Of a stretch of DNA of 64,000 bases, positions 5,360 through 62,438 are shown piece after piece (positions within the stretch are counted from its first letter, which is position 1; each line of letters begins with the position of its first letter). Source of the stretch: Sphyrna mokarran (Eukaryota). The position numbers and the translations under genes were made by a program. Under the pieces are notes generated by a model. That model was not told the DNA's origin and made no database searches. It saw only the letters and a program-made list of their open reading frames with translations. The stretch covers positions 22,568,001 to 22,632,000 of the forward strand of contig JAGIQG010000031.1 in NCBI GenBank assembly GCA_024679065.1, in the 5' to 3' direction.

Positions 5360-5686
5360 GTGAGTTAACTGCATAATACTCGAATATTGCAAATTCAAAA
5401 GTCACCAAGGATGGGGTGCAATGCCCACAACTCTCAGCTATCTAATCTGTCTGGTCAGAACTCCAAGGTGGTCATCAAATTTGCTACAAATTTGTCAAAA
5501 TATTCTGGGAATAGTTGATTAGTGAAATTAGTCCATGTTGCTTGCTTTTCTTGAGTGATTTGCCTATATATAAAAACTGTTAATCATCCTACTTTTCATT
5601 AATCTCAGAAAGAAGGTTAGGAACCATGTAAAATCTAAATTGACTGCAAGTGCAAACTTTATATCCCTACTGGGAAATGGTGCACA

Positions 5687-6017
5687 GAGCGGCATGGTGG
5701 CACAGTGTTTAGCACTGCTGCCTCACAGCTCCAAAGACCTGGGTTCGATTCCTAACTTGGGTGACTCTGTGTGGAATTTGCACATTCTGCCTGTGTCTGC
5801 GTGGGTTTCCTCCAGATGCTCCGGTTTCCTCCCACATTCCAAAGATAAGGGAGTTAATTGGCCGTGCTAAATTGTCCCTTAGTGCCCTGGGATTCATCGG
5901 TTAAAGGGATTAGTGGGGTAAATATGTGGGGTGATGGGGATAGGACCTGAGTGGGATTGTTGTTGGTGCAAACTCGAGGGGCCGATGGCCTCCTTCTGCA
6001 CTGTAGGGTTTCTATGA
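5687..6017 (+). mobile_element. tRNA-derived V-SINE (HE1-like) with CR1-type tail (type A)
   Basis: A box tggcacagtg.ttag, B box ggttcgattcc, V core gtgtctgcgtgggtttcctcc...ccggtttcctcccac, tail gggccgatggcctccttctgcactgtaggg. Other type A copies: 3908-4166(-), 15157-15462(+), 17120-17372(+), 35427-35737(-), 35851-36318(-), 42546-42860(-), 49139-49421(+), 54235-54555(-), 60333-60607(+). Confidence 0.9.
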
Positions 6018-9000
6018 CTTAGAAAAAGTAACAAAAAGGCTATAATATCCTCCATTATCATTAAGTAAATTCTAACATTTTTTCCTTCTGTTTGTAATGT
6101 GTCTTGAACTGATTCTTTTTTACATTAAAATTGTTCTCTGTATCGAAGTCGCTGAATAAACAAATGCACATCACTTTCTTGGAAATAATATAATGTTATA
6201 AGCACCTGGCCGTCTCTGGCCACAGTGATCATTTAGATGGTTAAATGATCGCAAGTAATAATTAATCTTGAATGCTAATATCTACAGTCTATGTTTCTCT
6301 GATATTTCTTTTTGCTGATAACTCCTCTCAGTTGCTTTCCTTCTCTGTTTGGATCAATTCTATGACCTGTTTCCCTTTAGCCTCAAATAAATTCTGTTGA
6401 AACATCCTGCCTCTGCCAGCCCATTGTTAGAGCAATCCAAAACAAAACCCATTGCTTATGCTTTTTTGTTCATAGTCTTATTTTTTTTGCTGCTTCAAAC
6501 GTTTATTCAGTTTTCCAGTAAAAGCTGTAATGTCTCAAGGACACCTTGTGGCAAATATTCCATGCTCCAGCACTCCTCTACATAAGAATCCTTGTCTTTC
6601 TCTCTCTCTCTTCAATCTCTTTGTGATATTAAAATTGATGAGTTTTTGTTACTGGATGCAAAATCAAAGGTATAGTCTTTCCTTAGCTACCCTATTAAAA
6701 TCCGAACAAATTTTAAAATATTGTTAAGTCTTTTCTTGGCTTTTAAAACCAATTCCTGCCCATGTGTGCCAGTCTATTCAATCAACTGTAATTTGAACAA
6801 TTGAGGGTCAGCACTTCTGACTAGATAAGGTCACAATTGACCCACACTGCAGAAGGAACCAGAAAACACTCCATATTTGTCCTATTGCAAACACATTGGT
6901 TTGTTCTAGACCTCTTGCTGTTCTCCTCTAGATGGATTATGGATGTTTTGGCAGGACTGTTACAAAATGCTGAAGACTCCAAGAAACTTCTTTCACAGAC
7001 TATATTAAAAGACTGCCAAATTCAAGACCAATTGCTGAGGCCTATCGTTAATCTGAAAATTGTACTGCAACATTTTCTACCAGAAGTTATAATGGAGATG
7101 TGGTGACACTGCCTGAACAATCCTTTTACCTGGATATTGTCTTATTTCTTAAATTAGTCACCCATAGTGTTAAACTTTTTAATCCTATGGTTTGGATGTG
7201 CTTTTTAAAAGAAAAATAATTGGATGTAGTGCTATTTCAAATCTCTCCTCATAACTCTTGATTGCTGGCATCAGGAATCAATGTTGTATGCTCTTGATGG
7301 CTTACATTTCTCTTCCATAGTCTGTTATTCAACTGTACCTAAATTTAACCATTTCTCATACAATGACTGCTTCTTTATTCTATGCCATATATTTTGTTTC
7401 ATTCATTCATGGTATGTAGGTGTTGTTGGCTAATTACCCTTGTAATGGTGGTCTTGGGCAGACTTTTTGAGCTGTTGCAGTCCATGCATACATTCATATG
7501 CATACATGCAGATAAGAAGGGAGTTCCTGGATTTTGACCCAGCGATGGTGAAGGAGAATGGATATTTCTTGTCAAGTTAGGATGCTGAGTGACTTGGAGG
7601 GAACTTCTAGGTGGTGGTGTCCTCATGTGTCTGATACCCTTGTGTTTCCAGATGGTCATGGTCGTGGGTTTGGAAGCTGCTGTCTAAGGAACCTTGAGTT
7701 GCTGCAGTGCATCTTTAGATGGTATAATGTGCTGCATTGTGTGCCCTGGTAGAGGGATTGAATGTTTGTGGAAGAATGGCAATCAAGAGGGGCTGCTTTG
7801 TCTTGGATGGCGTTAGCTCCTTGAGTGTTGATGGGAGCTGCACTCGTCCAGGTAAATGGAAAGTATCCCATCATATTGGAACCTCTAAGTCATTTTGTTT
7901 AGTCAGTATTGTCATTCCTTGGTATTCCTCCCAGGGTGTTGAACCTCACAGCTCTCCACGTTAAATTGTACCAGCTATTTATCTACCCATCCCAGGAAGC
8001 CATTGATCTTCCTGACACCTTTTACTATCCTGCTTGTTGTTTATCAAACTCCTTGTTTCTGTGTTGTGCATTCCTATTTTCTCCTGTTTTCTTCGGTGAC
8101 TCTTTTGTGCACTGGAGCGTGGTGACTCCTTGCAAGCTGTGACCAGTATAACCTCTAATTCTATCTTTTACCCTCGTCCTATGCTTTTAAAACTATATTC
8201 CAACTCTTAAATTTTGTAACAATGCTTTAATTCAATCTCTTAATCTCAATCCGGCATCCTCCCACTGTCCAAAGGTGGATTGGCCATGCCAAATTGCCTT
8301 TAGTGTCAGGGGGACTAGCAAGGATAAATGCATGGGGTTATGGAGATAGGACTGTGGTCGGTACAGACTTGATGACTGAATGGCCTCTTCTGCACTATTG
8401 AATTCTATGATTTGTGATCTAGTATTAAGTTGATTTTTCTCTACACCCTAGCTCCAACTTTAACAAAACATTCTGCATCTTCTTTCCTTTTCCATGAACG
8501 GGATAGCGCACAAGAAACAATGCTTTTCGCTGTATTCTAATACATGTGACAATAATAAATAAAATAAAGTTAGCTGCTAATGTTGCTGATGAATTTAAGT
8601 ATTGATCTTAGCAGTAATTTATCCTTGATTGCCTTAGTTACAAGGCTGAGAGTACCAAACGCCTATGTTTTAAGAAATCAGTCTGAACTGGATTTAAAGG
8701 CTCAATTTAAAAATTAATTTTGGACAGTAGGGTAAAGATGCTGCATTTTCAGAGAAAGCTAAGTTCAAAGGGAATGAGATATAGAGACAGACATACATAC
8801 AAACCCATGGCCTTTGTTTTTTATCTGTACTCCCTTCAAATGTGATTCCAACCTAAACATCCAAAGTCTGTCTAACACAGATTCTTGACCTAGGTCCCAA
8901 GAACTGAATGTGTGAATGCAGTGTAGTTTGATTCTGAGTTTTCCAGTTCAAGAAGATTCACAATGGTTAGCAGTGCTGCCTCACAGTGCCAGCAAACTAG

Positions 9001-19750: not shown

Positions 19751-21231
19751 GAACAAGTATTCGAGGTCACCGTTGCAGATGTCAGAGCAGCCTTCTCAAA
19801 GGTCAACCTATGGAAAGTGACCAGCCCAGATGGAGGTATCCAGATGAGCACCCAGATCCTGCGCGGATCAGCTGGTGGAGGTATTCACAGACATCTTCAA
19901 CCTCTCTGATGACAACCTGAGGCCCCTATTTGCTTCAAGAAGATGACTATCATCCTGGTACTAAAGAAAAGCCAGGCAGCTTGCCTTAGTGACTATCAGT
20001 GACTGACATCCCTCGTCATGAAGTGCTTTGAATCAATTCCAGCATCCCAGATTGCCTGGCTCCACTACAGTTCACCTACTGCTGCAACAGGTCCAGAGTA
20101 AACACTATCTCTCTGGCCCTGCACTTAACCCTGGAGTATCTAGATAACAAAGATACCTATGTCAGATTCCTATTTATCAATTGCAGCTCAGCCTTCAACA
20201 CAGTTATTCCTACGAAGCTCCAAGCTCCTTGACCTGGGGCTTGACTCTCCCTTTGCAACTGGATCCTGAACTTCCTAACCCACTGATCGCAATCAGTATG
20301 CATAGGCAACAACACTTCCTCCATAACCATCCTCAACACTGGTGCCTCACAAGGGCTGTGCCCTCAGCCTCTTATTGAATTCCTTATATACATATGACTC
20401 TGGCCAAATTCCCCTCCAATTCAATTTTCAAGTATGCTGATGACATCATCATAGTGGGTCAGATCTCAAACAATGATGAGACAGAGTATGGGGAAGAGAT
20501 AGAGAATTTGGTGAACTGGTATGATGACAATAATTTCTCCCTCAATATCAACGAAACGAAAGAGATAGTCATCGATTTCAGGGAGCGTAGTGGAGGACGT
20601 GCCCCTATGTACATCAATAGGGACAAAGTAGAAATGGTCGAGAGCTTCAGGATTCTAGGTGTCTGTGTTACTAACAACCTGTCCTGGTCCCTCCATGACG
20701 ACACTATAGTTAAGAAAGCCCACCAACACATCTATTTCCTCAAGAAATTTGGCATATCAACCATAATTCTTTCCAACTTTTACAGATGCACCTTAGAAAG
20801 CATTCTTTTTGGTTGTATCACAGCTTGGTATGATTCCTGCTTTGTCCAAGACTGCAAGAAAGCAGTTGTGAATGAAGCGCAGTCCATAACTCACTCCTGT
20901 CTCCCACCCTGCGTCAGAAAAGCAGCCAGCATAATTAAGGACTTTGCGCACCCTGGATATACTCTCTTTCACCTTCTTACATCGGGAAAAAAGGTGCCAG
21001 TACTAACTGACTCAAGAATAGTTTCTTCCCTTTTGCCATCAGACTTTTAAATGGACCTATTTCGCATTAAGTTGATCTTTTGATGCACCCTAGCTATCTA
21101 TGACTGTGAGACTACATTCTACACCTTCTCCTTTCCTACTCTGTATATGGTGTGCTTTGTCAGTATAGTGAGCAAGAAACAATATTTTTCACTGTATACT
21201 AATACAAGTGAAAATAATAAATCAAATCAAA
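19751..21231 (+). mobile_element. Rex1/Babar non-LTR retrotransposon, 5'-truncated and degenerate (RT domain and 3' UTR)
   Basis: FKYADDIIIVGQISNNDETEY...LNINETKEIVIDFR; ends in (aaatc)n tail; sits between two halves of a SINE (19560-19630, 21232-21295). Confidence 0.88.
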
Positions 21232-32530: not shown

Positions 32531-33336
32531 CAAAGTGAAACTGAGCAATTCACTGTGAACCCATTCATACAAGCTATTGAATCCGGTGTCAGCTACTGAA
32601 CATTTACTCTTCCAAAGACAGAATCTTCATGTGTTTATTCACTGCCTTTGTATCAATTCACCAGAATCATTTATCTTTCTAAAGTTCATCTTGTATTTTA
32701 TTTTGAATTACAGACAAGGAAATGTACCTTCAAATCCTCCCAAATGACACTTCAGTCGTTCATGGTTCCTTTTAACATACCATTCCAAATGAATTGCTCT
32801 TGCATTTCATCTGACAAAGGCATATATATCTCTATAGCTTTAGAGCATAAATTTCTAATATTAAGAAAGAAGTTGCATTTATGTAGCTAAAAGAGCTTGA
32901 AGTTCTACCTTGTATCTAAGTCTTTGTCAAACTTGAGCATATATGTGTGTCATGGTTTCAATGTAAAGTACTCACTTGGAGGTGAGACTGACTCATTTTA
33001 GTTGGTTAATGTACTCATTAGCAAACTTGCATTAATTTAAATGGTTTACAATTATTTTCAGCTTCATACAGATTTCATTCCAAATGTTTCCCTGTGTTAA
33101 CACCTATCAACGGTATTTCAGTTTGCCCTGCTGTTTATCCTTTTGAGATAGGAAATAAATACTTCAAGAATTGGCTCACAAAATCCAGGAGAGAACTTCA
33201 CAAATTCATTAGCAACATCACAGAGAAATTATTTCATGAAATTAGGTCACCCTAAAACTAACCAAGAACTGGTGTATGAGATGCACTTTCAACATATGCT
33301 ACTGCAAGGTTAATAGTCTGAGAATGACCCTACAGT

Positions 33337-34580
33337 GAACAAAGAGCAACACAGCACGGGAAACAGGCCCTTCAGCCCAACGAGCCCGCGCTGCCGTCCT
33401 AATGTCTTAATGACATATCCATGACTTTAGGCTATGCCTATTGTGCAAGATTCCCATATAGGGACCAATATAGGGACAATTTGTTACCCAATCAGCCTAA
33501 GAGCACATTTTTGGGATGTGGGAGGAAACCGGAGCACCCGGAGAAAACCCACGCAACCACGGGGAGAACGCGCAAACTCCCGCAGACACAGGCCCAAATC
33601 CATGTGTCTGCACAGCAACAGCGATAGTCTCTGAGCTGTCATGTTGCCCATCAGATGGTCCAGTTTAAGCATACACTAACGACTTGAAGCACTAGGCCAC
33701 TCCTGAAGCAACATCCAAGAGCAGCCCTCGCACGACCTGCCGAATGCATGCACCTTGTTGGTCAACAAGGTGGACCGAATTGCCTGTGGAAACAAATAAG
33801 ATATTTAGACAGTCCTGCTACATCCCTCTATCTGCAGACCGCTCATGTGGCTGTCCAAGAGACCCTTAAACAACCCTAGCGTGCCTGCTCCCACCACCTT
33901 ACTCGGCAGTGCATTCCACACCCCCACTACCCTTTGTGCCCTCTAATATTCGTCTTATACATAGCCCCCCTCACCCTAAGGCCGTGACCCCTCGTTCTAT
34001 CCATTTCTAATGGTGGAAAAAGCTTACCACTATTTACTCTATCTATACCCTTTATAATCTTATATACCTCTATTAGATCCGCTCTCAGCCGACGTCTTTC
34101 AAGGGAAAGCAACCCCAGTGCGTTCAATCTTTCCTCATAAGACAGCCCTTCCATACCAGGCAGCATCCTGGTAAATCTCCTCTGCACTCTCTCCAAGGCC
34201 TCCACATCCTTCTGGTAGTATGGCGACCAGAACTGGACACAGTACTCCAAGTGAGGCCTAACCAATGTTCTATACACTTGCAACATCAGACTCCTACTCT
34301 TGTATTCTATTACCCCTTCCTATGAAGGCTAGCATAGCTTTCTTTATCACATTCTCCACCTGTACTGACACCTTCAGAGACTTGTGAACCTGCAGAGAGA
34401 CTTGTCTCTCTGCGTCTCTATATTCCGGATAGTTTTACCTTTTATCCTATAACTCCCCTCTACATTATTCCGGCCAAAATGCATCACCTCGCATTTATCT
34501 GGATTAAATTCCATTTGCCATCTATCTGCCCAATCTACCAGCCTATCTATGTCCTGTTGTATTGCCTGGCACTGCTCCAG
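33337..34580 (-). mobile_element. CR1 LINE 3' portion with long 3' UTR containing the V-SINE core domain
   Basis: ORF2 C-terminus LVRPHLEYCVQFWSPYY...LERRRLRADLIEVYKI and WADRWQMEFNPDKCEVMHFG; about 470-nt UTR. Confidence 0.92.
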
Positions 34581-35960: not shown

Positions 35961-36175
35961 TTGGGACATTAAGGGGCAATTTAGTATAGCTAATCCACCA
36001 ACCTACACATCTTGGGACACCAAGGGGCAAATTTAGCATGCCTAATTCACCTAACCCACACATCTTTGGACACTGAGGGGCAACTTAGCACAGCTAATTC
36101 ACCTAACCTACACATCCTGGGATGCTAAGGGGCAATTTAGCATGGGACAATTCACCTAACCTACTCATATTTGGC
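35961..36175. repeat. Four ~51-bp tandem units inside a V-SINE
   Basis: Unit ~ggacactaaggggcaatttagcatggctaattcacctaacctacacatcttt, present four times. Confidence 0.85.
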
Positions 36176-37669
36176 CTATAGGAAAAAACCGGACTACATG
36201 GAGGAAATCCACACAGACACTGCAAGAACATCCAAACTTTGTACAGACTGTCACCCAGGCTGCAATTGGACCTGGTTACCGGCACTGTGAGACAGCAGTG
36301 CTAACCATTGTGCCACCTCTATGTAAATGTAAATTATTGCTGGTAGCTGTGTGTACTGTGACACAATCAAAAAGATAAAACTCCATGAAGCATTAGGAGC
36401 CTATATTAGTTGATGTTATGTTATTATTTAGTAGTCTCTGTGTAACACTTCAGCAAAGCCTAATAGTCCACAGAAAATATCTCAGCATCAATGTTTTAAT
36501 CATTTGTGACCATGCTTGACAGACAAATTAGGAGTATTACATATTAAAAAGTCTTGCATATTATCACTCTATTGAGAATATTTCAGATGTATGAAACTTA
36601 ATAGCCGGTGAAATTGGCTTTCAAACCCTTAAAAAAAACATTGCTATCATTGGAATAATTGGACACTGACAACATCAGATGAGGAAATTTGGCCTAAACC
36701 TTACCAACTCATCCATCCCACAATTGGCTAGGTTCCCAGAGTGTAAATCTCCCTTGGCCTTAGGTGGGATTTTACAATCTCACCTGACTGAGGCCATAAA
36801 ATCCTGCCCATTGTGTTTATATTGGTCAACAATGAATGCCTCAGTTTAATCCCACCTTCCAGCTCTGTGTCATTGGCCCTTCCAAATCATGGCTTTACAA
36901 ATAGACATCCAAGCTCCTTTTAAATGTGGTGAGAGCTTCTATCTCTATCACACTTTCAAGCAGCGAGTTCCAGCTCCCTTACCACCTTTAAGTTTAAAAA
37001 AACTGTTTCATTATCAACGCTCTAAATTTAAGTTTACTTATTAGTGTTACTAGTCGGCTTACATTAACACTGCAATGAAAACACTACTGCGAAAATCCCC
37101 TTAGTCACCATCCTCCAGTGCCTGTTTGGTTACACTGAGGGTGAATTTAGCATGGCCAATGCACTTAACCAGCATGTCTTTTGAAATGTGAGAGGAAATT
37201 GGAGCACCTGGAGGAAACCCATGCCAACATGGGGAAAACTGCACAGTGACCCAAGCTGGGAATCAAACCAGGTCGTTGTTACTGTGAGGCAGTAGTGCAT
37301 GCCTCTGTGCTGCCCTAATCCTTTAGCACTTACTTCCAATCTATTATTCATCTCTCTATTATTCACATCCAATCTCTCCTCAAGCTATGGTCTAACTAGT
37401 TAGTGGTGTGTATACTTCAAGCAAAACTCCCTTGCTCTTGAAGTCTGTGCTTTGTCCCAGCCAAATACAAAGTCAAATACTAACCACAGAAGTAGTGATC
37501 TTTTAGCTATTCAGCCAGTCCATGCTTGATTGAACCCCAATGAACTCTGCCACAAAGCAATGATCCAACTGGGAATTTATAGAAAAGAAATGTTTTTCCA
37601 ACCTCTCTAATTAAGTACTAATACAAAAAATTTGATCTAAAACATTCAGGGTTCCCAAACAAATCTTGA

Positions 37670-38854: not shown

Positions 38855-39365
38855 CTGATTTGATTTATTATTGTCACATGTATTAACATACAGTGAAAAG
38901 TATTGTTTCTTGCACACTATACAAAGCATACCATTCGCAGAGAAGGTAACGAGAGAGTGCAGAACGTAGTGTTATAGTCGTAGCTAGGATGTAGAAAAAG
39001 ATCAACTTAGTGCAAGGTAAGCCCATTCAAAAGTCTGACAGCAGCAGGGAAGATACTGTTCTTGAATCAGTTGGTACGTGACCTCCGACTTTTTGTATCT
39101 TTTCCCGATGGAAGAAGGTAGAAGAGAGAATGTCCGGGATGCTGACAGCTTTACTGAGACAGTGGGAAGTGTAGACAGTGTCAGTGGATGGAAGGCTGGT
39201 TTGTGTGACGGATTGGGTTTCATTTACAACCTTGTGGTCTTAGGCAGAGCAGGAGCCGTACCAAGCTGTGATACAACCAGAAAGATTTCTATGGTCGTCT
39301 GTAAAAGTTGGTGAGAGTTGTAACTGACATGCCAAATTTCCTTAGTCTTCTGAGAAAGTAGAGGC
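38855..39365 (-). mobile_element. Rex1/Babar 3' fragment
   Basis: Reverse complement of the Rex 3' end (gatttgatttattattgtcacatgtatt...). Confidence 0.85.
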
Positions 39366-41740: not shown

Positions 41741-43798
41741 CAAGACAGGCCGTGAAAAACTGCATTCAAGTGGTCTCTTGATGAGTTCAATTGCCTGCTT
41801 GATTATCAGAAGGCACACGTCTAACTGTCACAAGCCCCTGCCAGCAAAATGTTGCACGTTGGCACGATGATATCAGGTCATGCACCTGACATATTTCCAT
41901 GCGATTTCATGTGCATCCAGGTCGGCTGCACACCTGCTCAAGCAACGTCAATTTCTGGCCCAACTCTTGGTAAGTGTTTTTGAAATGTTGTTACATCTAT
42001 CGGAAATCTCTTTCCCCCTCCTTAACTCCCACATTTCCATTATTTGTTCTCATGCACCTACCTTTCCACTCTCTAACACAGCAATCCTTCTTTGTGTTCT
42101 GCCCTTACCCAAAGTACTGGCTGACTCTTCCAACATGTTTTGTTAACTTAAGTCCCTTGTAAACAAATGCGATATCTTTTCTGAGGTCCACAGATACCTT
42201 GCCATTTTTTTAACTGCAGGTAGCAATGCTGAGTGTAAGACGTCAAACAGTACTTAGATGTGCCTAGCCAGTGAGCTATTAAACTATGACATGTAAAACA
42301 TAATAAATCAATTACATTTTCTTGCACCAGTAATTGCCACAGGATTTGTGTCTTCAACATTGAAGGAGATAATGAATATTGGATTTCCACAGCTATAAAA
42401 ATAAATTGTTTGGGCCTCATTCAAGCCAGATGGTAAGTAATTAAAAGTCTCATTGCCATTAAATACTGTGATTACAGACTACCACCAGGAGAGCATTTAT
42501 TGTGATTGTTGAGATAATATTCAGGTTTAGTGCTAACACTTGTATCATAGAATTCCTACAATGCAGAAGGGCGTCATTCAGTCCATCGAGTCTGCACCGA
42601 CCACAATCCTACCCAGGCCCTATTCCCACAACCCCACATATTTACCCTGCTAATCCCCCCGACACTAGAGTCAATTTTGCATGGCCAGTCAACCTAAGCC
42701 ACATGTCTTTGGATTGAGGGAGGGAAGTGGAACACCCGGAGGAAACCCACGCAGACATGGGGAGAAAGTGCAAACTGCACAGATAGTGACCCAAGCTGGG
42801 AATTAAACCCAGATTCCTGGTGCTGCGAGGCAGCAGTGCTGACCACTGTGCCACCATGCCACATCAGAAGGTTGTTATTTTAAGGTCCACCCTAAGACTA
42901 GGGATGACACATTAGTGATGTAGCAAGCTCATACTGCATTGTTGGAGGCCAAGTTTGCTCTTACAGACAGACACACAAGATCTGCCAGACTAAAGGAGAG
43001 TGGAGCTGCTCACTGTCAGAGTAACATTTATCCTCCTCCCATATTACTAAATCAAATGTTCTTGTCATTGGGCTCACTGCTTGTTTTGGGATCTTACTGT
43101 ACACATTTCTTGGCCACTTTTACCTGCATTGCAACCGTGACTTACATCTGAAAAATACTTAAGTGGTGAGAGAATAGAATCCTAACAAGGAGGTCACCTT
43201 GACTGGAAACATTGGCCAGAATGTTACAATTGTAACACTGTGGGCAGCACAGTGGTTGACCCTGCTGCCTCACAGGTTCAGGAATCCAGGTTCAATTCCC
43301 GGCTTGGGTCACTGTCTGTGTGAAGTCTACATGTTCTCCCCATGTCTGCGTGGATTTCCTCTGGGTACTCCAGTTTCCTCCAACATTTTGAAAAACATGC
43401 TGGTTAGGTGCATTGATCCAAACAGGTGTCAAACATGGCAACCAGGGGAATTTCACAAGAACTTGATTGCAGTGTTAATGTAAGCCTTACTTGTGACACT
43501 AATAAATATACTTTACAGCTGTTCATGCAGGTGGGATTTTCCCATCCCGCTGCGCTGAACAGAGATTTAGCGGGTGCCAAATTCTCTGACTTTGCCAAAG
43601 CGGGAGTCGCACGGTGTGAACGGGCAGCACAATCATGCCCATTTGCTCTATTCTCTCTCCAGAGATGCTGTCAGACCTGCTGAGAATTTCCTAGATTTTT
43701 CTGCTTTTGTTTCAGATTCCAGCTGAAACAACACTTAATTGGCTATAAAATTGTTTTTGAGTTGTCTTGATAGTAGTTTTGGAGGATGTCGAGAGGCT

Positions 43799-45901: not shown

Positions 45902-48900
45902 CAGTCTAATGCCAGCATCTCCACATCTTGAATGAAGGTCACCATTCATCAGAATCTTAACAGGATCAGCCAAATATGTACTGTTGCTACAAGAGCAGAT
46001 TACAGGCTGAAAATTCTGAGAATAATTGCCTCCTGACTCCACAGAGCTTGTCCACCACCTGTAAGGTACAAATCAAATGTGTGATGGAATACTGTTCACT
46101 TGCCTGCATGAGTAAATTCCGTCAACACTCGAGTTCAACAAAGCAGCTTGCTGGATTTTCACTCCATCCAGCAGCTTAGACACTCACCTCCTCCACTACT
46201 GCACCTCTGTATGTCATGTTAAAGAAGAAATTCCCCCAAGCCCCCTTTGCCAGCATCTTCCAAACCTGTGAACCACTGCCACTGAGAAGGACAAGGTCAG
46301 AATATGCTCTTCTCACACAAATTCCCCTTCAAGGCTCATAACATCCTGGCTTGGAATTATTTTTGTTTTATTTATTCATTAATGGTATATGGATGTCGCT
46401 GTCTTGGCCAGTATTTATTGCCCATCCCTAATTGCCTTTAAGAAGGTGGTGGTGAGTCTATGTGTTGTAGTTACACCCACAATGCTTTTAGGGAAGGAGT
46501 TGCAGATTTTTACATAGTGACAGTGAAGGATCAGTAGTATAGTTCCAAGTCAGGATCATGTATGTCTTTGAGGGAGACTTGCCAGTGGCGATGTTAACAC
46601 GCATCGCTGTTCCTTCACTGTCACTGGGTCAGAAGCTCCCTCCCTAACAGCATGGAAGGTGGATCTACACCACATGTACTGCAGCGGTTCAAATGGGATT
46701 CAGCAATACTTTCGCAAGGACAATCTGAGATGGCAAGAAAGGGCAGCATGGTAGCATAGAACACTGCTGCTTCACAGTGCCAGGGACTTGGGTTCAACTC
46801 CCAGCTCGGGTCACTGTCTGTGTGGCGTCTGCACTTTTCACTGTGTCTGCTTGGGTTTCCTCTAGGTGCTCCAGTTCCTCCCATAGTCTGAAAGATGTGC
46901 TGGTTATGTTCTTTTAACCCCAACAGGCACTAGACTGTGGCTACTAGGGGAATTTCACAGAAACTTCATTGCAGTGTTAATGTAAGCCTTACTTGTGACA
47001 AATAAATAAACTTTTAGGAAATGCTGGTTATGAGTGATTAAAAAAGAAAAGAAAGCCGTGAGTGTAAGTATCAAAGGATCGGAGTGGGAATTGCAGACTA
47101 CTTTATTTATTGAGTTGGCAAAGCTGACAATGTACATCCAAAAATGAGACAAATTTACTCAGTTCTCACTCATTTTCCCACTTACTGAACAAAACGCTGC
47201 ACCACTGGAGAGACAATACTAAGCGCTTCACTGTGGGTCAATTGAAGGAGCATTGCATCTGACGGGGGAGGGGGAGAGGGTGACAATACTGAATGAGTGT
47301 TGTCAGTCGAGCAGTACTACAGACTGCACCATTGAATGCACAGTCCTTGTGAGAAATCTGTTGGTGTTTTAAAGATGTCTCTGAGAAAGGGGCAAATTTT
47401 GAAGTCACTTACTATACCATACAATATTCCAGACTGTATAGTGTTACAGTACTTCAATTTTCACATTGATTTTTTGGTCTGGGAATGTATCTCTGACTTT
47501 AACATTGATACCTCTGGATAACGGTTCTTCACTGAAAGGGGTTTTGCTTAAAGTGCTGATTTTCAGGAACTTAAAACTGTCACTTTAAGTGGGGACTCAC
47601 TTTGAGTCAGCTTGATGATGGAGTATAAAGAGGAAACTTAAATCATTCACAGCATTGGTAATTGGCCCGACTGTACAGAAACTGACTTTTGATTTTAGTA
47701 TCTGACTGTTGTTTGAGCCCTCTGAAGAATTCTTAAAAGTCAAACTCACTGTACACCTGAGTTTGCGTACATCAAAGGTACATGTAATGAATAAGACCTC
47801 ATGATGTATTTATTCCAAAATTTTTTGAAAGCAGTCTAGTCACATCAGTGGTTGCAGTTGCTTACTTCAAAGATACTTCTCTTTTCAACCAAGACTTCCT
47901 GATTCAACAGTCTTTGAATCCTTTGAGAATTCGATTTATTAATCCTCTTTCTGTGTAATAATTAATAGATCCCTCTGCATAAAGAAAATAATCTTGGCTG
48001 ATGTCCCAGTCATTTATCTCCTTGAACAACAATTTTGTGTTGATAAAGGTTAGAAATTTGAAGCAGAAGATGAGCCAAGATTCTTCTGTGTCACGTCACC
48101 GCTTATCTTGGATAGCCCATGCTCCAAGACACAAGAAAGTTGATGTATTAACCCTTAACTTGGCAGGGTGTTCTACAATAGGCACTTAGATCTTGCTAGC
48201 CTGAAAGTCAGGTTTTACTGAAGGAGTGCTTCACTGTCGAGGAGACACCATCAGACTTAAGAGCTTGATTTACTGCTAAGACATGGTAATACAGCTCGAG
48301 GAACATTTCAAGTATATACCCCCTTCACTCATGTAAGTGGCAGATTTGCTGCACTTTGTACTTCCATTCTCTTTCTGCCAGCAACTAAGGATGTTGACTG
48401 AGCTATCTTTTCTTTACATTTTCCCTGCTCCTAAAGAATTATGTTAAAAGCCAGGGTCACAGAACAAAGAAAAGAGTCTCCGTTAAATAATTGCATATTC
48501 ATCAATTCTGTGCTTGGCAGGCAATGGGGTTTGAGCGTCAGTGAAATTATTTTAACCATTTCTCGGCTTTTGGGTGAATTTGGGCGACAGTCAGTTTGAT
48601 GGAATGATATGATTTCCATTTCCCCCAATCTTTGGTGCATCATTTCAAAAGTGGATCTTGAGCAAGACTTTGGTTGGATTTGTGGCTCTCAGCAAACAGT
48701 GAGAAGGCAACACCAGACAACATGAACTTCACTTTCTGTCAGGGGGTATGGAGAACGCACTAGAGTATAGCGTTAAGCACAGTTAAGAAGTCTGACAACA
48801 CCAAGTTAAAGTTCAATAGGTTTATTTGGTCGCAAGTTAAGTCTAGCATTAAGGCAGAGGATCAGCCATGATCATTTTAAGTGATGGAGAATGCTCAAAT

Positions 48901-53690: not shown

Positions 53691-56600
53691 GTATCTTATT
53701 TTTCAGAAAACATTTTGACAAAATGACATACAGGTGATCAAGCCTATGGAATGAATGGGAAATATAGAAACAAAATTGGCGAATGACAGGAAAGAAAATA
53801 TTGTGGCTGGAAGGTATTCAGGCTGGTCGATTGTCTGTACTGTATCCCAACACTTCTCAGTGACCTGGACATTGATGTTCTGAGCAATGTTATAAAGTCT
53901 GCAGATGATGCATTTGGCAGAGTAGCAGACAGTAATGAGGATAGTCACAGCCTTTAGGAAGGTGCAGTGAGCAGAAACATGGCAGATGGAGCTCAGTTCA
54001 GAGAAGTGTGAAGTGATGCACTTATGGAAAAACAGTTCTATAAATGGCACCATTTTCAACAGTATAGATGAGCTGAGAGACCTTGGTGTCCCTATACAAG
54101 TTGATAAGATTGTTAAAAGGCAAGTGAATTACTTGGGTTTATAAAAAGAAGAATAAAGTAAATCTCATGGGAACTGTAAGGCATCAGCTGGAGAAATGAA
54201 GATAATTCTAGGCCCCATATTTCAGCAAAGCTTATAGAATCATAGAATCCCTACAGTGCCGGAAAAGGCCATTCTGCCCATCAAACCTGCACCAAAAACA
54301 ACCCCACCCAGATCTTTATTTCCGTAATCCCACCCTGCTAATTCCCTTGACAGCAGGGGACAATTTTACCAAAGCCAATCAACCTAACCCATACACCTTT
54401 GGAATGTGGGAGGAAACCAAAGCACCCAGAGGAAACCCATGCAGACACAGGGAAAATGTGCAAACCCCGCACAGAAGGTGACCCAAGCCGGAAATCCATC
54501 CCGGATCCTTGGCGCTATGGGGCAACAATGCTAACCACTGAGCCATCATGTGCCATCATAGCAACTTTCCAAAGAGTAAGGGTACATAGAGGAAATTTCC
54601 ATGAGAGGAAGTTTCCCAAGATGTTCCCAGAGATGGGGAATTTCAGTTCTGAGGGGAAGTTGGGAAAGTTAGGACTTATGCTGGGAACAAAGACAGTTCA
54701 CAGTTTAAAATTTCTTTATTTGTGTCACAAGTAGGCTTGCATTAACACTGCAATGAAGTTACTATGAAAAATCCCTTAGAGGCAACTGAATAGAGGACTT
54801 TCAAAATGATGAGAGGTTCTGATGGAGTCGATAGAGAGTAAGCGAATTTACAATCATTGGGAAAAGATCTGAGGGTAAATGAGGAGAGATTTGAGATCTG
54901 CGATGTGCTGGCAACTGATTCCATTAATATTTTTTAAATTAGAGGAATTGACCAGGTTCCAGACATAATAAAGCAGGGTTTTTTTGTGAACAATATAGCT
55001 GCAATCACCACCCTCATGCTGTTTTACTCAGAACTCCTTGCACTGGCATGTGGGACTGGTTGCAATGCCTGAACTTACCCACTTCAGTCACTTGGCTATT
55101 ATATGATCCAGTGTTTAAATAGCATACAGTTAACATGGTGATCATTAGCAGCATCGGACGACCACAAACAGGACTTATAGGGTGGCATAATGGCACAGTA
55201 GTTAGCATTGATGCCTTACAGCGCCAGGGATCCGAGTTCGACTCCTGGCTTGGGAAACCATCTCCCCATGTCTGCAAGGGTTTCCCCTGGGTGCTCCGGC
55301 TTACTCCCACACTCCAAAGACATACGGGTTAGATGTATTGACCTGAACAGGCACCAGAGTGTGGCAAATAGTGGATTTTCACAGTAACCTCATTGCAATT
55401 TTAATGTAAGCCTACTTGTGATTATTAAATAAACTTTACTTTTGAGCATCTGTGCTTATAATCCACAAACTCTTGACTGTTAAATTCCAGCCATATCCGA
55501 TTCACACCACTATGTCCGTAATTGTAAAACCTTTTTTTTAAACACAATTCATCTGGACCTGATCTTCACGTTTCCTAGACAAACTGTTTTTACAACAATC
55601 CATTCATGGGGTACCATTAGACTTTTAATTCCAGATTTCCATCGATCGTGCTGCAAATTTTGGCCATTCTCTACGCCTCCCCCCCCACCCCTCCCACCAC
55701 CACCCGTGAACAGCTAGCCAAGACAGATGTGGCTATGGCTGGAATGCTGACGACATACCCTCCCCGATTCCAAGGGCAGGCGAGACTCAGAGATCAGCAT
55801 TCTCTGTGGGCCTCGGATGGCATCGTATGAACCTTGGGCAAACATGCCAGTGAAATTTCACCCTATGTGAGGCTTCCATATCTTCTGGCCAGTAACCAAC
55901 AGATTTGCAAAATGTGTTGGGAGGGACTCAGTGTTTCCCTCCTGTTATTCCCCGTTTGACTCAAGACAGTGTTTGACAATTTGACGCACTCCTCCATTAT
56001 CAACTCAGCTTACGCAGTCACCTCCTTGGAAGAGTCAATTTCAGCACCAATTGCAATTTCCGCTTGGAGGACCGCAAATTGTTCTCGCAAGTGAACCTGA
56101 TAGTGGTGGGGCTTTTATTTCATTGAGCCAAGACCCAGTTTTACCTGTTGGTGTTATCATGGGGGATGAGTATTAATCAAAATTAATGAGAATTGATCAA
56201 AAGCTCAACCTTATCTTTGGACTGAGGTATGGATAGGACTATTCGAATAGTTATTTCATTGAGGGTCGTGTTCACAGGCAGGATGAGTCATCAAATCCCT
56301 CCAGTGCTGAAGGAGGCCATTCGAACTACTGGGTCTGCACTGACTCTCTGACAGAGGCACAGTGGTTAGCACTGCTGCCTCATAGCTCCAGAGACCTGGG
56401 TTCGATTCCTAGCTTGGGCTTTTTCTGTGTGGAGTGTGCATGTTCTCATCGTATCTGTGAGGGTTTCCTCTGGGTGCTCCGATTTCCTCCAACAGTGTGA
56501 AAGACTTGCTGGTTAGGTACATTGATCTGAACAGGCACCAGAGTGTGGTGATGAGGGGAATTTCACAGTAAATTCATTGCAGTGTTGATGTAAGCTTTTC

Positions 56601-57273
56601 TTGTGACAAATAAATAAACTATATTTTAGAATCTTACCCTAGCCCTATCCCCATAACCCCACACATTTACCATGGCTAATCAATCAACCCAAAAAAAATC
56701 AGGACATTAAGGAGCAATTTAGTATGGCCATAACACAAAAATCCCAATTAACTCATTTTTATTAAGTGTGTGTAGCTTAGTAGATTGTATGCAGTGACTA
56801 GGGGATTTTCACAATAACTTAATTTCAGTGTTAACATAAGGACTCACATCATTCCAATTAGGATTGACACAGAGAACGATCATTATCTTGGAGGTTCGGG
56901 TTATGATGAATATAAAGATAATTTTGCAACTATCAAAATTTTCTTACCCCCAAAAGAACCACAAGTTGCATCTCATGCCCAACTTTTAATGGCAATTCTC
57001 GGTGTACATCACAATTCTGTAAGAGTGGTACAGTTTAAAATGCCTGCAAGTCCACTTTCCTCTGTGATTCTCATTAGATTGACTTTAAGTTCTATCTAGA
57101 GCTACCCTGTCTACTTGAACAGCAGCAAGGATGTGTTCGGCATTTGATGTCTCAATGATCTTCTTAAATTTTGCATTAAATTTTTAAGCCCTAAATTTGC
57201 CCCAAAACTTTGCTGAAGTTTTTTAAAATTATTTATTCGTGTCACAAGTAGGCTTACATTCATTTGCAATGAA

Positions 57274-57648
57274 ACGCAAACCAGGTTCCATTGATTCTGT
57301 CTACGCTTCCCACTGCCCCAGAAAAGCAGCCAGCATAATTAAGGACCCCACGCACGCAGACATTCTCTCTCTCACCTTCTTTCATTAGGGAAAAGATATA
57401 GATGTCTGAGGTCACGTACCAACCGATTCAAGAACAGCTTCTTACCTGCTGCTGTCAGAATTTTGAATGGATCTACCTTACATTAAGTTGATCTTTCCCT
57501 ACACCCTACCTCTGACTGTAACACTATATTCTGCACTCTCTCATTTCCTTCTCAATGAACAGTATGCTTTGTCTCTAGCATGCAAGAAACAATACTTTTC
57601 ACTGTATGCTAATACATGTGACAATAACAAATCAAATCAGATCAAAAT
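57274..57648 (+). mobile_element. Rex1/Babar 3' fragment inserted in a SINE tail, with target-site duplication
   Basis: caatgaa repeated at 57267-57273 and 57649-57655; the flanks rejoin into the SINE tail. Confidence 0.85.
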
Positions 57649-57939
57649 CAATGAAGTTACTGTGAAAAATCTCTTACTAACTTTATTAACTGAAAGTCAT
57701 TCTGAATATTTGCTGAAGTCAGACCCTGGAGGTTACAGCCAGAGGTTGAACTAACAGCATTAGGAGTTAAGGTTGGTTGAGCCACCCAAAAAATCCTGAG
57801 CCCAACTTCTCACCTGAATGTATTTCGTTCCTGTCTGTTTTGGGGGTAATCAGGTTTCCAGAACCTGCCCACCGGATGGTGGGTACGACAATGATTTGTG
57901 TGTTCTCTATGCACTGGGAGAACTCTGGAACTCACTCAC

Positions 57940-58707: not shown

Positions 58708-59429
58708 TTGATTTAATTTGATTTGATTTATTATTGTCACACGTATTGGGATACAGTGAAAAGTATTGTTTGATTTATTATTGTCACGTGTATTGGGATA
58801 CAGTGAAAAGTATTGTTTGATTTATTATTGTCACACGTATTGGGATACAGTGAAAAGTATTGTTTGATTTATTATTATCACATGTATTGTGATACAGTGA
58901 AAAGTATTGTTTGATTTATTATTGTCACGTGTATTGGGATACAGTGAAAAGTACTGTTTCTTGCATGATACAGACAAAGCATATCATTCGTAGAATACAT
59001 AGGGGAGAAGGAAAGGAGAGAGTGCAGATTACAGTGTTGAAGTCACAGCTAGAGTGTAGACAAAGGTCAGCTTAATATATGGCAGGTTCATTCTATAGTC
59101 AGATGGCAGAGAGAAGAAGCTGTTCTTGAGTCAGTTGGTACGTGACCTCAGACTTTTGTATTTTTTTCTCGACGGAAGAAGGTGAAAGAGAGTATGTATG
59201 ATGTCTGGGGTCCTTATTATTCTGACTGCTTTCCTTGATGCAGTGGAAAGTTTAGATGGAGTCAATAGATGGGAACCTGCTTTAGGAGGCTGATGGATTA
59301 GGCTATGTTCACAACCCTTGGGGTCTAGTCAGAGCAGGAGCCATACTAAGCTGTAATACAACCAGAAAGGATGCTTTCTATGGTGCAGTTGTAAAAGTTG
59401 GTGAGAGTTATAGCTGACATTCCAAATTT
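58708..59429 (-). mobile_element. Rex1/Babar 3' fragment with reiterated 3' terminus
   Basis: Matches 38855-39365; terminal 47-mer present five times. Confidence 0.88.
58724..58958. repeat. Tandem array, 5 x 47 bp
   Basis: Unit tgatttattattgtcacacgtattgggatacagtgaaaagtattgtt starting at 58724, 58771, 58818, 58865, 58912; no spacers. Confidence 0.97.
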
Positions 59430-61417: not shown

Positions 61418-62438
61418 GAACAAAGAACAAAACAGCACGGGAAACAGGCCCTTCGGCCCAACGAGCCCGCGCTGCCACCCCGATGTTCCCACCTCTACCC
61501 GTGATCCCTGTCTACGTTTGTAGATCTATGGATTAAAAACCAAATTTGAGAAAATTTAGGGAGAATTTGTTTTGCCGATTAGCCTAAGAGCACACTTTTG
61601 GGATGTGGGAGGAAACCGGAGCACCCGGAGAAAACCCACGCAAGCATGGGGAGAATGCGCAAACTCCCACAGGCCCAAATCCACGTATCTGCACAGCACA
61701 GCGATAGTCACTGAGATGCCATGTTGCCCATCAAATGGTCCAGGTCAAGCGTACACTTAATGACATGAAGCACTAGGATACTCTCGAAAAAGATCCAACA
61801 GCAGCCCTCTCACGACCCATTGCGTGTATGCCCTTGTTAGACAACAAGGTGGATCAAAGCCCTGTAGGATAAAAACAAGTAAATCAATATCATCATCTAT
61901 TCACACACTTCCCAGGGACTCCCAAGGCTCATGATCCCTATTTTAAATCAATTTTCTATACCCCTCCATTCCCATTCTGTTCATGTGCCCATCTAAATAT
62001 TTCTTAAATAACTCTACAGTGCCTGCCTCCACCACTTTACTTGGCAGCACATTCCATACCCTCACCACCCTCTGAGTGAAAAAACTCCCTCTAACTTCCA
62101 AATTATATCTTACCCCCCTCACCCTAAGCCCGTGACCTCTCATGCTATTCGAGTCCATCCTAGGAAAAAGCTTAATCCTGTTTACTCTATCAATACCCGT
62201 CATAATCTTGTACACCTCTATAAGATCTCCTCTAAGTCTACGTCTTTCTAAGGAAAACAGCCCCAATTTGCCTAACCTCTCCTCGTAACTCAGACCTTCC
62301 ATACCAGGCAGCATCCTGGTAAATCTCCTCTGCACTCTCTCCAGACTCTCCACGTACTTCCGGTAGTAAGGCGACCAGAACTGGACACAGTATTCCAAAT
62401 GAGGTCTAACCAACGTTTTATACAACTGCAACATTAAC
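61418..62438 (-). mobile_element. CR1 LINE 3' portion with long 3' UTR containing the V-SINE core domain (second subfamily)
   Basis: Uninterrupted ORF2 C-terminus (ORF 61943-62464); UTR colinear with 33337-33800. Confidence 0.93.

Follow-up and report, generated by a model that had tools for sequence, protein, structure and literature searches.

The window analysed here, a stretch of 64,000 nucleotides of Sphyrna mokarran DNA (contig JAGIQG010000031.1), holds two LINE copies, which we take to be CR1-type, at 33337-34580 and 61418-62438 on the minus strand, where a sequence-only reading of the same DNA had placed them and with the ORF2 peptides that it had quoted. Their 3' UTRs, of 468 and 525 nt, proved to be colinear, as that reading had also proposed, each running from a conserved block through the core of a V-SINE and a variable spacer into the CR1 tail. 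The features of the two copies are as follows.

33805..34580 (-): copy A, 5'-truncated, frameshifted 3' end of the CR1 ORF2, with its stop at 33807-33805
33784..33804 (-): copy A, 3' splice site (AG at 33785-33784) with its polypyrimidine tract, used in the spliced retrocopy L236
33650..33783 (-): copy A, structured block forming the start of the terminal exon, fold z -3.8, without an Rfam match
33581..33649 (-): copy A, worn remnant of the tRNA-type SINE head, with a mutated A box and the B box lost through an 18-nt deletion
33471..33580 (-): copy A, V highly conserved domain
33396..33470 (-): copy A, spacer that evolves fast
33337..33395 (-): copy A, CR1 tail with its hairpin and terminal microsatellite
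61943..62438 (-): copy B, 5'-truncated 3' end of the CR1 ORF2, with its stop at 61945-61943
61862..61942 (-): copy B, spacer from stop to acceptor, with a polypyrimidine tract and AG (61863-61862) at its end
61730..61861 (-): copy B, structured block
61668..61729 (-): copy B, worn remnant of the SINE head
61557..61667 (-): copy B, V highly conserved domain
61477..61556 (-): copy B, spacer
61418..61476 (-): copy B, CR1 tail

The identification of the V core holds, since by eye it agrees with the published V_HCD consensus across its ~120 nt, as that consensus is drawn in the supplement (Fig. S1) of PMC6887750. Two further CR1 ends in the window, at about 29550 and 63470, are without the module, again as previously claimed. 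The window also contains free V-SINEs of two families, which share head and core and have unrelated tails (for example 5686-6017 for one; 43239-43516, 46740-47014 and 56351-56630 for the other); in a 664-kb sample made up of the window and 60 arbitrary 10-kb stretches, 65 copies carried a CR1-type tail and 48 an AATAAA-rich one. At 36103-36317 lies a V-SINE copy whose post-core segment is tandemly repeated several times, and at 58708-58959 a 47-nt tandem repeat built from the terminal part of a different interspersed repeat family, which is itself present at 8419-8572, 20744-21231, 38855-39364 and 57274-57651.

The arrangement is not peculiar to these two loci. For each window copy, all 30 loci fetched (the best of 8553 and 14445 candidates) join an ORF2 end to the same UTR within differing flanks, with identities of 92-96% and 93-94% to the respective window copy, so that independent SINE insertions, which the sequence-only reading had kept in view, can be rejected. 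At one subfamily A locus, L025, the spacer is interrupted by another CR1. A 24-mer from the UTR gave 5450 exact matches in the 2.77-Gb genome against 0 for a control, and 30 of 30 position-ordered examples matched subfamily A or B across the module; copies thus number in the thousands. Of 84 CR1 C-termini in the 664-kb sample, 8 are succeeded by the module, the others mostly having a short UTR that leads straight into the tail.

Four subfamilies carry the module, namely A and B, to which the two window copies belong, C, and the older D. Subfamily C (L186-L205) is the youngest, with about 98% identity among its best hits, and ends in an A-run in place of the microsatellite of A, B and D. Subfamily D, which rests on eight worn copies selected by an A-like pattern, shows 82-93% identity to its own majority sequence. 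In a phylogeny of the 330 nt at the 3' end of ORF2, built from 64 of 87 rows after exclusion of 23 short ones, the module bearers form one branch (support 99/99) nested among 54 rows without the module; when D is added they remain a single clade (100/99, with 11 rows bearing the module and 54 without it), within which D branches first, although with modest support (88/77). The module has a single origin in one CR1 lineage. There is a hint that this lineage spreads beyond the present genome: a fraction of 0.09-0.56 of the words of copy A is present in sequencing runs of seven further organisms, and contigs from two of the seven cover the block, one of them having a head nearer to that of the SINE.

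Full-length A copies are about 4.6 kb long. CR1 elements have a separate upstream ORF1 of a zinc-binding, esterase type, and the majority sequence of 18 full-length A copies has a 303-codon ORF1 that overlaps ORF2, the latter being open in the majority through its last 691 codons. In L091, ORF2 matches the APE endonuclease (PF03372/PF14529) and reverse transcriptase (PF00078) families of Pfam above the cut-off, and a weak GDSL match (E 0.0004) falls under it. No copy with both ORFs unbroken was found among 15 extended copies. In L091:4098-7373, ORF1 and ORF2 are joined in one frame of 1092 codons by a frameshift private to that copy, and a second frameshift breaks the C-terminus. The ends seen are of CR1 type, with 5' truncation and a 3' hairpin followed by a microsatellite. 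The 5' UTRs of L167, L169, L170, L171 and L177, all from the 5' ends of full-length A copies, carry head-to-tail monomers of ~200 nt, up to about four in number, each monomer of the A copies carrying a TATA-like box and a splice donor; they are reminiscent of the promoter monomers of mouse L1.

Upstream of the V core, where the sequence-only reading had seen no tRNA head, the LINE carries a worn version of the tRNA-type head of the free SINE. The remnant scores above 1997 of 2000 shuffles and all 722 other windows in A, and above 1998 of 2000 shuffles and all 588 other windows in B; in C it is weak (120 of 2000). A search with a head-only profile returned the expected place as its sole match (E 0.07-0.14). 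In D the head is complete, being colinear with that of the SINE over the full 88 nt and identical at 61 of 87 positions. Scored against patterns of the Pol III A and B boxes, the free SINEs have no mismatches, whereas every LINE subfamily has two in the A box; the B box is altered in D and has been removed from B, A and C by a common 18-nt deletion. The embedded V-SINE has its V domain and tRNA-related head, and is without intact Pol III A and B boxes. Homology between the spacer and the 3' part of the SINE was not above that of shuffles, so the tail may have arrived together with the SINE or belong to the LINE from the start. The block was matched only in LINE-type or truncated LINE copies, and the module is not an independent unit of retroposition.

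Because D holds the complete 88-nt head, the LINE must have captured a whole V-SINE rather than been its source, and capture ran from SINE to LINE, followed by stepwise loss of the promoter, with the boxes mutated in D and the deletion shared by B, A and C. The sequence-only reading had left both directions open; its proposal that a LINE lineage captured and kept the domain stands, the module being a fixed and constrained part of the UTR, and its other proposal, that the V domain originated in the LINE, is refuted by subfamily D. An origin from LINEs has been argued for some SINE bodies in the accessible part of PMC5786205, but here the module is confined to one nested CR1 clade and comes with a worn tRNA head, and V domains range from cnidarians to frogs according to the accessible part of PMC4824008; we give a LINE origin practically no weight.

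We then compared divergence of the V core with that at four-fold degenerate ORF2 sites, as the sequence-only reading had advised. The differences were 4/89 in the core against 58/171 at four-fold sites for A-B, 4/89 against 18/125 for A-C, 8/89 against 36/96 for B-C, 6/85 against 11/32 for D-A, 5/85 against 10/29 for D-B and 9/85 against 11/30 for D-C. The core is thus 3-7 times slower in every one of the six pairs (P between 1e-8 and 0.022, in tests that are not independent, since the pairs share branches), and a module drifting at the neutral rate, the other outcome considered there, does not fit these values. The CR1 tail is as slow as the V core, and the spacer between them, with many gaps, evolves at the neutral pace or faster. 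Compared with four-fold sites, the head is slower in three of the six pairs (the exceptions being A-C, D-A and D-C), as is the block (the exceptions being A-C, B-C and D-C), for which the rate in D is biased by the selection of D copies with an A-like pattern. In subfamily C the block has changed faster than four-fold sites.

These rates bear directly on the idea that the module is a neutral passenger, a SINE and its flank that were carried along by 3' transduction and never removed. The MER6 MITE carries a V-SINE without its head, for which the accessible part of PMC6887750 shows no role, and the block keeps near the neutral pace in three of six pairs. The slowness of the core in every pair, at the significance given above, speaks against it, and because of these rate tests we regard the idea as already largely refuted and very improbable.

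A predicted fold common to the free SINE and the LINE offers a candidate for what is being conserved. Three hairpin arms are enclosed by a stem in which the 5' end of the head pairs with the core, and a hairpin containing an internal loop lies 3' of the enclosed arms. The base pairs of the SINE are kept at 35 of 40 in A, 36 of 39 in B and 35 of 40 in C, compared with 28-30 when substitutions are placed at random, and at 43 of 49 in D compared with 37.9 (P 0.008, 0.0004, 0.002 and 0.011 for A, B, C and D, respectively), the kept pairs including two-sided changes from G-C to A-U. The 18-nt deletion removed only the tip of one arm in the predicted fold. In published frog V-SINEs, judged by eye from the supplement of PMC6887750, the closing stem likewise varies between G-C and G-U in a pair-keeping manner. 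The thermodynamic picture is more mixed: the head-plus-core of the free SINEs does not fold better than shuffled sequence (z -0.08 and +0.6), that of subfamily C folds weakly (z -1.3), and the minimum-energy folds are missing the closing stem in A, taken in isolation, and the V hairpin in D. The Vhc stem-loop of invertebrate SINEs is apparently not preserved in fish V-SINEs, as far as the accessible part of PMC4758252 describes them. The substitutions preserve the predicted head-plus-core fold of the SINE and, because the promoter signals have been lost while the core and the predicted fold have been kept, the V core likely works as part of a folded RNA.

The block of ~135 nt that precedes the head folds well (z -3.8, -2.8 and -2.8). 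It was found only with this LINE. A search of 33300-33900 against Rfam, at E values up to 10, gave nothing meaningful (best E 1.3) and no match to a ribozyme or other Rfam family. A similar-looking loop motif had led us to consider an HDV/CPEB3-like ribozyme, which was rejected since, judged by eye on the alignment, its stems and catalytic C are not kept in all subfamilies.

The core could also have stayed constant without any function in the LINE, if it were continually refreshed by template switching, either with the abundant RNA of V-SINEs or from one subfamily to another. Free V-SINEs are plentiful (165 matches against 10 linked to LINEs in 664 kb), a role in tail exchange has been proposed for V domains in the accessible part of PMC4758252, and the branch rates of block and head are uneven. 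The LINE core differs from the free SINE core at 6 of 66 positions. Within the initial 66 nt of the core, all four subfamilies have three states in common that neither SINE family shows, and the altered head is likewise unlike theirs. The three LINE-wide states make refreshment from free SINEs unlikely; in addition, a neutral spacer lies among the conserved parts (head, core and tail), and base pairs are maintained through two-sided changes. On this evidence we rate refreshment as quite improbable.

The module also has a property that the sequence-only reading had missed, in that it is a splice-ready terminal exon. It begins with a pyrimidine tract and a CAG|G acceptor, which by a simple score ranks first among all AG sites (485 in A, 202 in B and 131 in C) and persists behind at least six differing spacers between the stop codon and the block. 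Subfamily A has a consensus donor, CTG|GTGAGT, 47 nt past the common 5' start. The junction predicted from this donor was then searched for, and gave one exact match in the genome, with none for a control. The matching locus, L236, has the usual 5' start, the 47-nt exon 1 and the whole module to its microsatellite end, at 97.6% identity, and is without exactly the 4124-nt GT-AG interval that holds both ORFs; it has no clear target-site duplication, and it is the only junction-spanning match among the 40 scored of 478 candidates. One exact retrocopy thus shows that in subfamily A, as read from the genome, the module can be spliced as a terminal exon to a short 5' exon.

Such copies are rare. 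Unspliced donor junctions gave 50 exact matches, at 47 full-length loci, and because these stand against a single L236 we conclude that the splice sites work in A and that the spliced RNA is seldom copied. The junction from the second donor gave no genome matches, nor did a B junction guessed from the weak donor of that subfamily. In RNA-like contigs from four runs in which the block is covered, and which give neither strand nor level, the splice joint was absent from the 15 of 57 joints listed. There was no pile-up of 5' truncations at the acceptor (0 of 30 non-canonical copies). Two loci, L213 and L227, start at the acceptor and there carry the three letters that close exon 1; these are possibly spliced copies truncated just past the junction, though too short to tell. 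In L210 and L066, internal deletions fuse ORF2 to the module through short shared letters rather than splice sites.

It is conceivable that the spliced non-coding RNA of ~500 nt is itself the selected product, the placing of the ORFs in an intron serving to yield a Pol II 'SINE-like' RNA that would regulate, decoy or help the LINE. In each subfamily the strongest acceptor adjoins the stop codon, despite turnover of the spacer ahead of it, a consensus donor lies 47 nt past the common start in A, and the spliced form exists. Against this, a single spliced copy compares with 47 full-length loci that are unspliced and with truncated copies in the thousands; the B donor is weak and its junction was not found, and spliced L1 copies are dead ends in the account of PMC5860796 accessible to us. 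We consider both the selected product and the functions suggested for it unlikely.

The interpretation that we prefer, with a probability of roughly 0.62, is that the captured head-plus-V core is a cis-acting structured RNA inside the terminal exon. One CR1 lineage would have taken up a whole V-SINE behind ORF2, lost the A and B promoter boxes of the SINE and kept the head-plus-V-core sequence, whose predicted multi-branched RNA likely acts in cis on the LINE's own transcript through its stability, its export or the assembly of its particle. Within this explanation we lean towards a scaffold for host proteins that aids survival or nuclear exit of the unspliced RNA, although we would put the odds of that a little short of even. 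Loss of the promoter may have been favoured if an internal Pol III promoter would otherwise give rise to a short competitor RNA ending in the same tail. The spliced RNA of ~500 nt would be mostly a by-product or a brake, because both ORFs are absent from it and it is rarely copied. A more far-reaching version, tentative and on balance doubtful, is that the V domain is one half of an ancient multi-branched fold with the tRNA head that is independent of Pol III, and that a CR1 clade domesticated this fold as a terminal exon and, with its ORFs intronic, switches between genome RNA and a structured non-coding RNA of ~500 nt that controls or assists its own spread.

The central domains of SINEs have been conserved for more than 500 million years for reasons that are not yet settled, according to the accessible parts of PMC4824008, PMC4758252, PMC6887750 and PMC11481361. 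Here a V domain is found in an autonomous-type element, free of Pol III, and the series of free SINE, D, B, A and C reveals which of its bases and pairs matter. Its capture argues for a role at the RNA level inside a mobile element over one in the host or as a promoter, and the question of the conserved core becomes testable by a retrotransposition assay. The case also shows a LINE that took in its own parasite and acquired an exon structure. We found no report of a LINE with a V domain, or with splicing of this kind, in the accessible literature, and the accessible part of PMC5786205 states that no LINE sequences resembling conserved SINE bodies had been found.

Several known systems share parts of this arrangement. 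The V-SINE HE1, whose partner LINE is HER1, occurs in sharks and rays (PMC3747384, in its accessible part); its tRNA head, V domain and CR1-type tail are like those seen here, and the free SINE family T1 has the same build. The LINE studied here, which may be HER1 itself or another lineage, holds the head and V domain in addition to the shared tail. MER6/MER6A is similar in being a mobile element with a captured, promoter-less V-SINE, but in the accessible account (PMC6887750) it is a DNA transposon, non-autonomous and dead, that lacks an RNA stage and for which constraint is not shown, whereas the LINE with the module is a young, autonomous-type retrotransposon with a constrained RNA. A core hairpin of ~40 nt with an internal loop is predicted here, as in the Vhc stem-loop of invertebrate SINEs (PMC4758252); the accessible part of that paper describes no head-core pairing, and no Vhc in fish V-SINEs, whereas a pairing of head with core is predicted here. 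The spliced retrocopy resembles the SpIREs of L1 in being spliced LINE RNA retrotransposed as a dead-end copy, but the SpIREs splice within the 5' UTR or into ORF1 (PMC5860796, in its accessible part), whereas here one intron spans both ORFs and its acceptor, at the start of the captured module, is kept across subfamilies. Finally, L236 keeps only the 5' and 3' ends of its LINE, as do the bipartite non-autonomous LINEs (PMC5786205), for which the accessible text gives ORF-less forms only from RTE, Ingi, Vingi and R2; unlike these, L236 is a CR1, was made by splicing and is a single copy.
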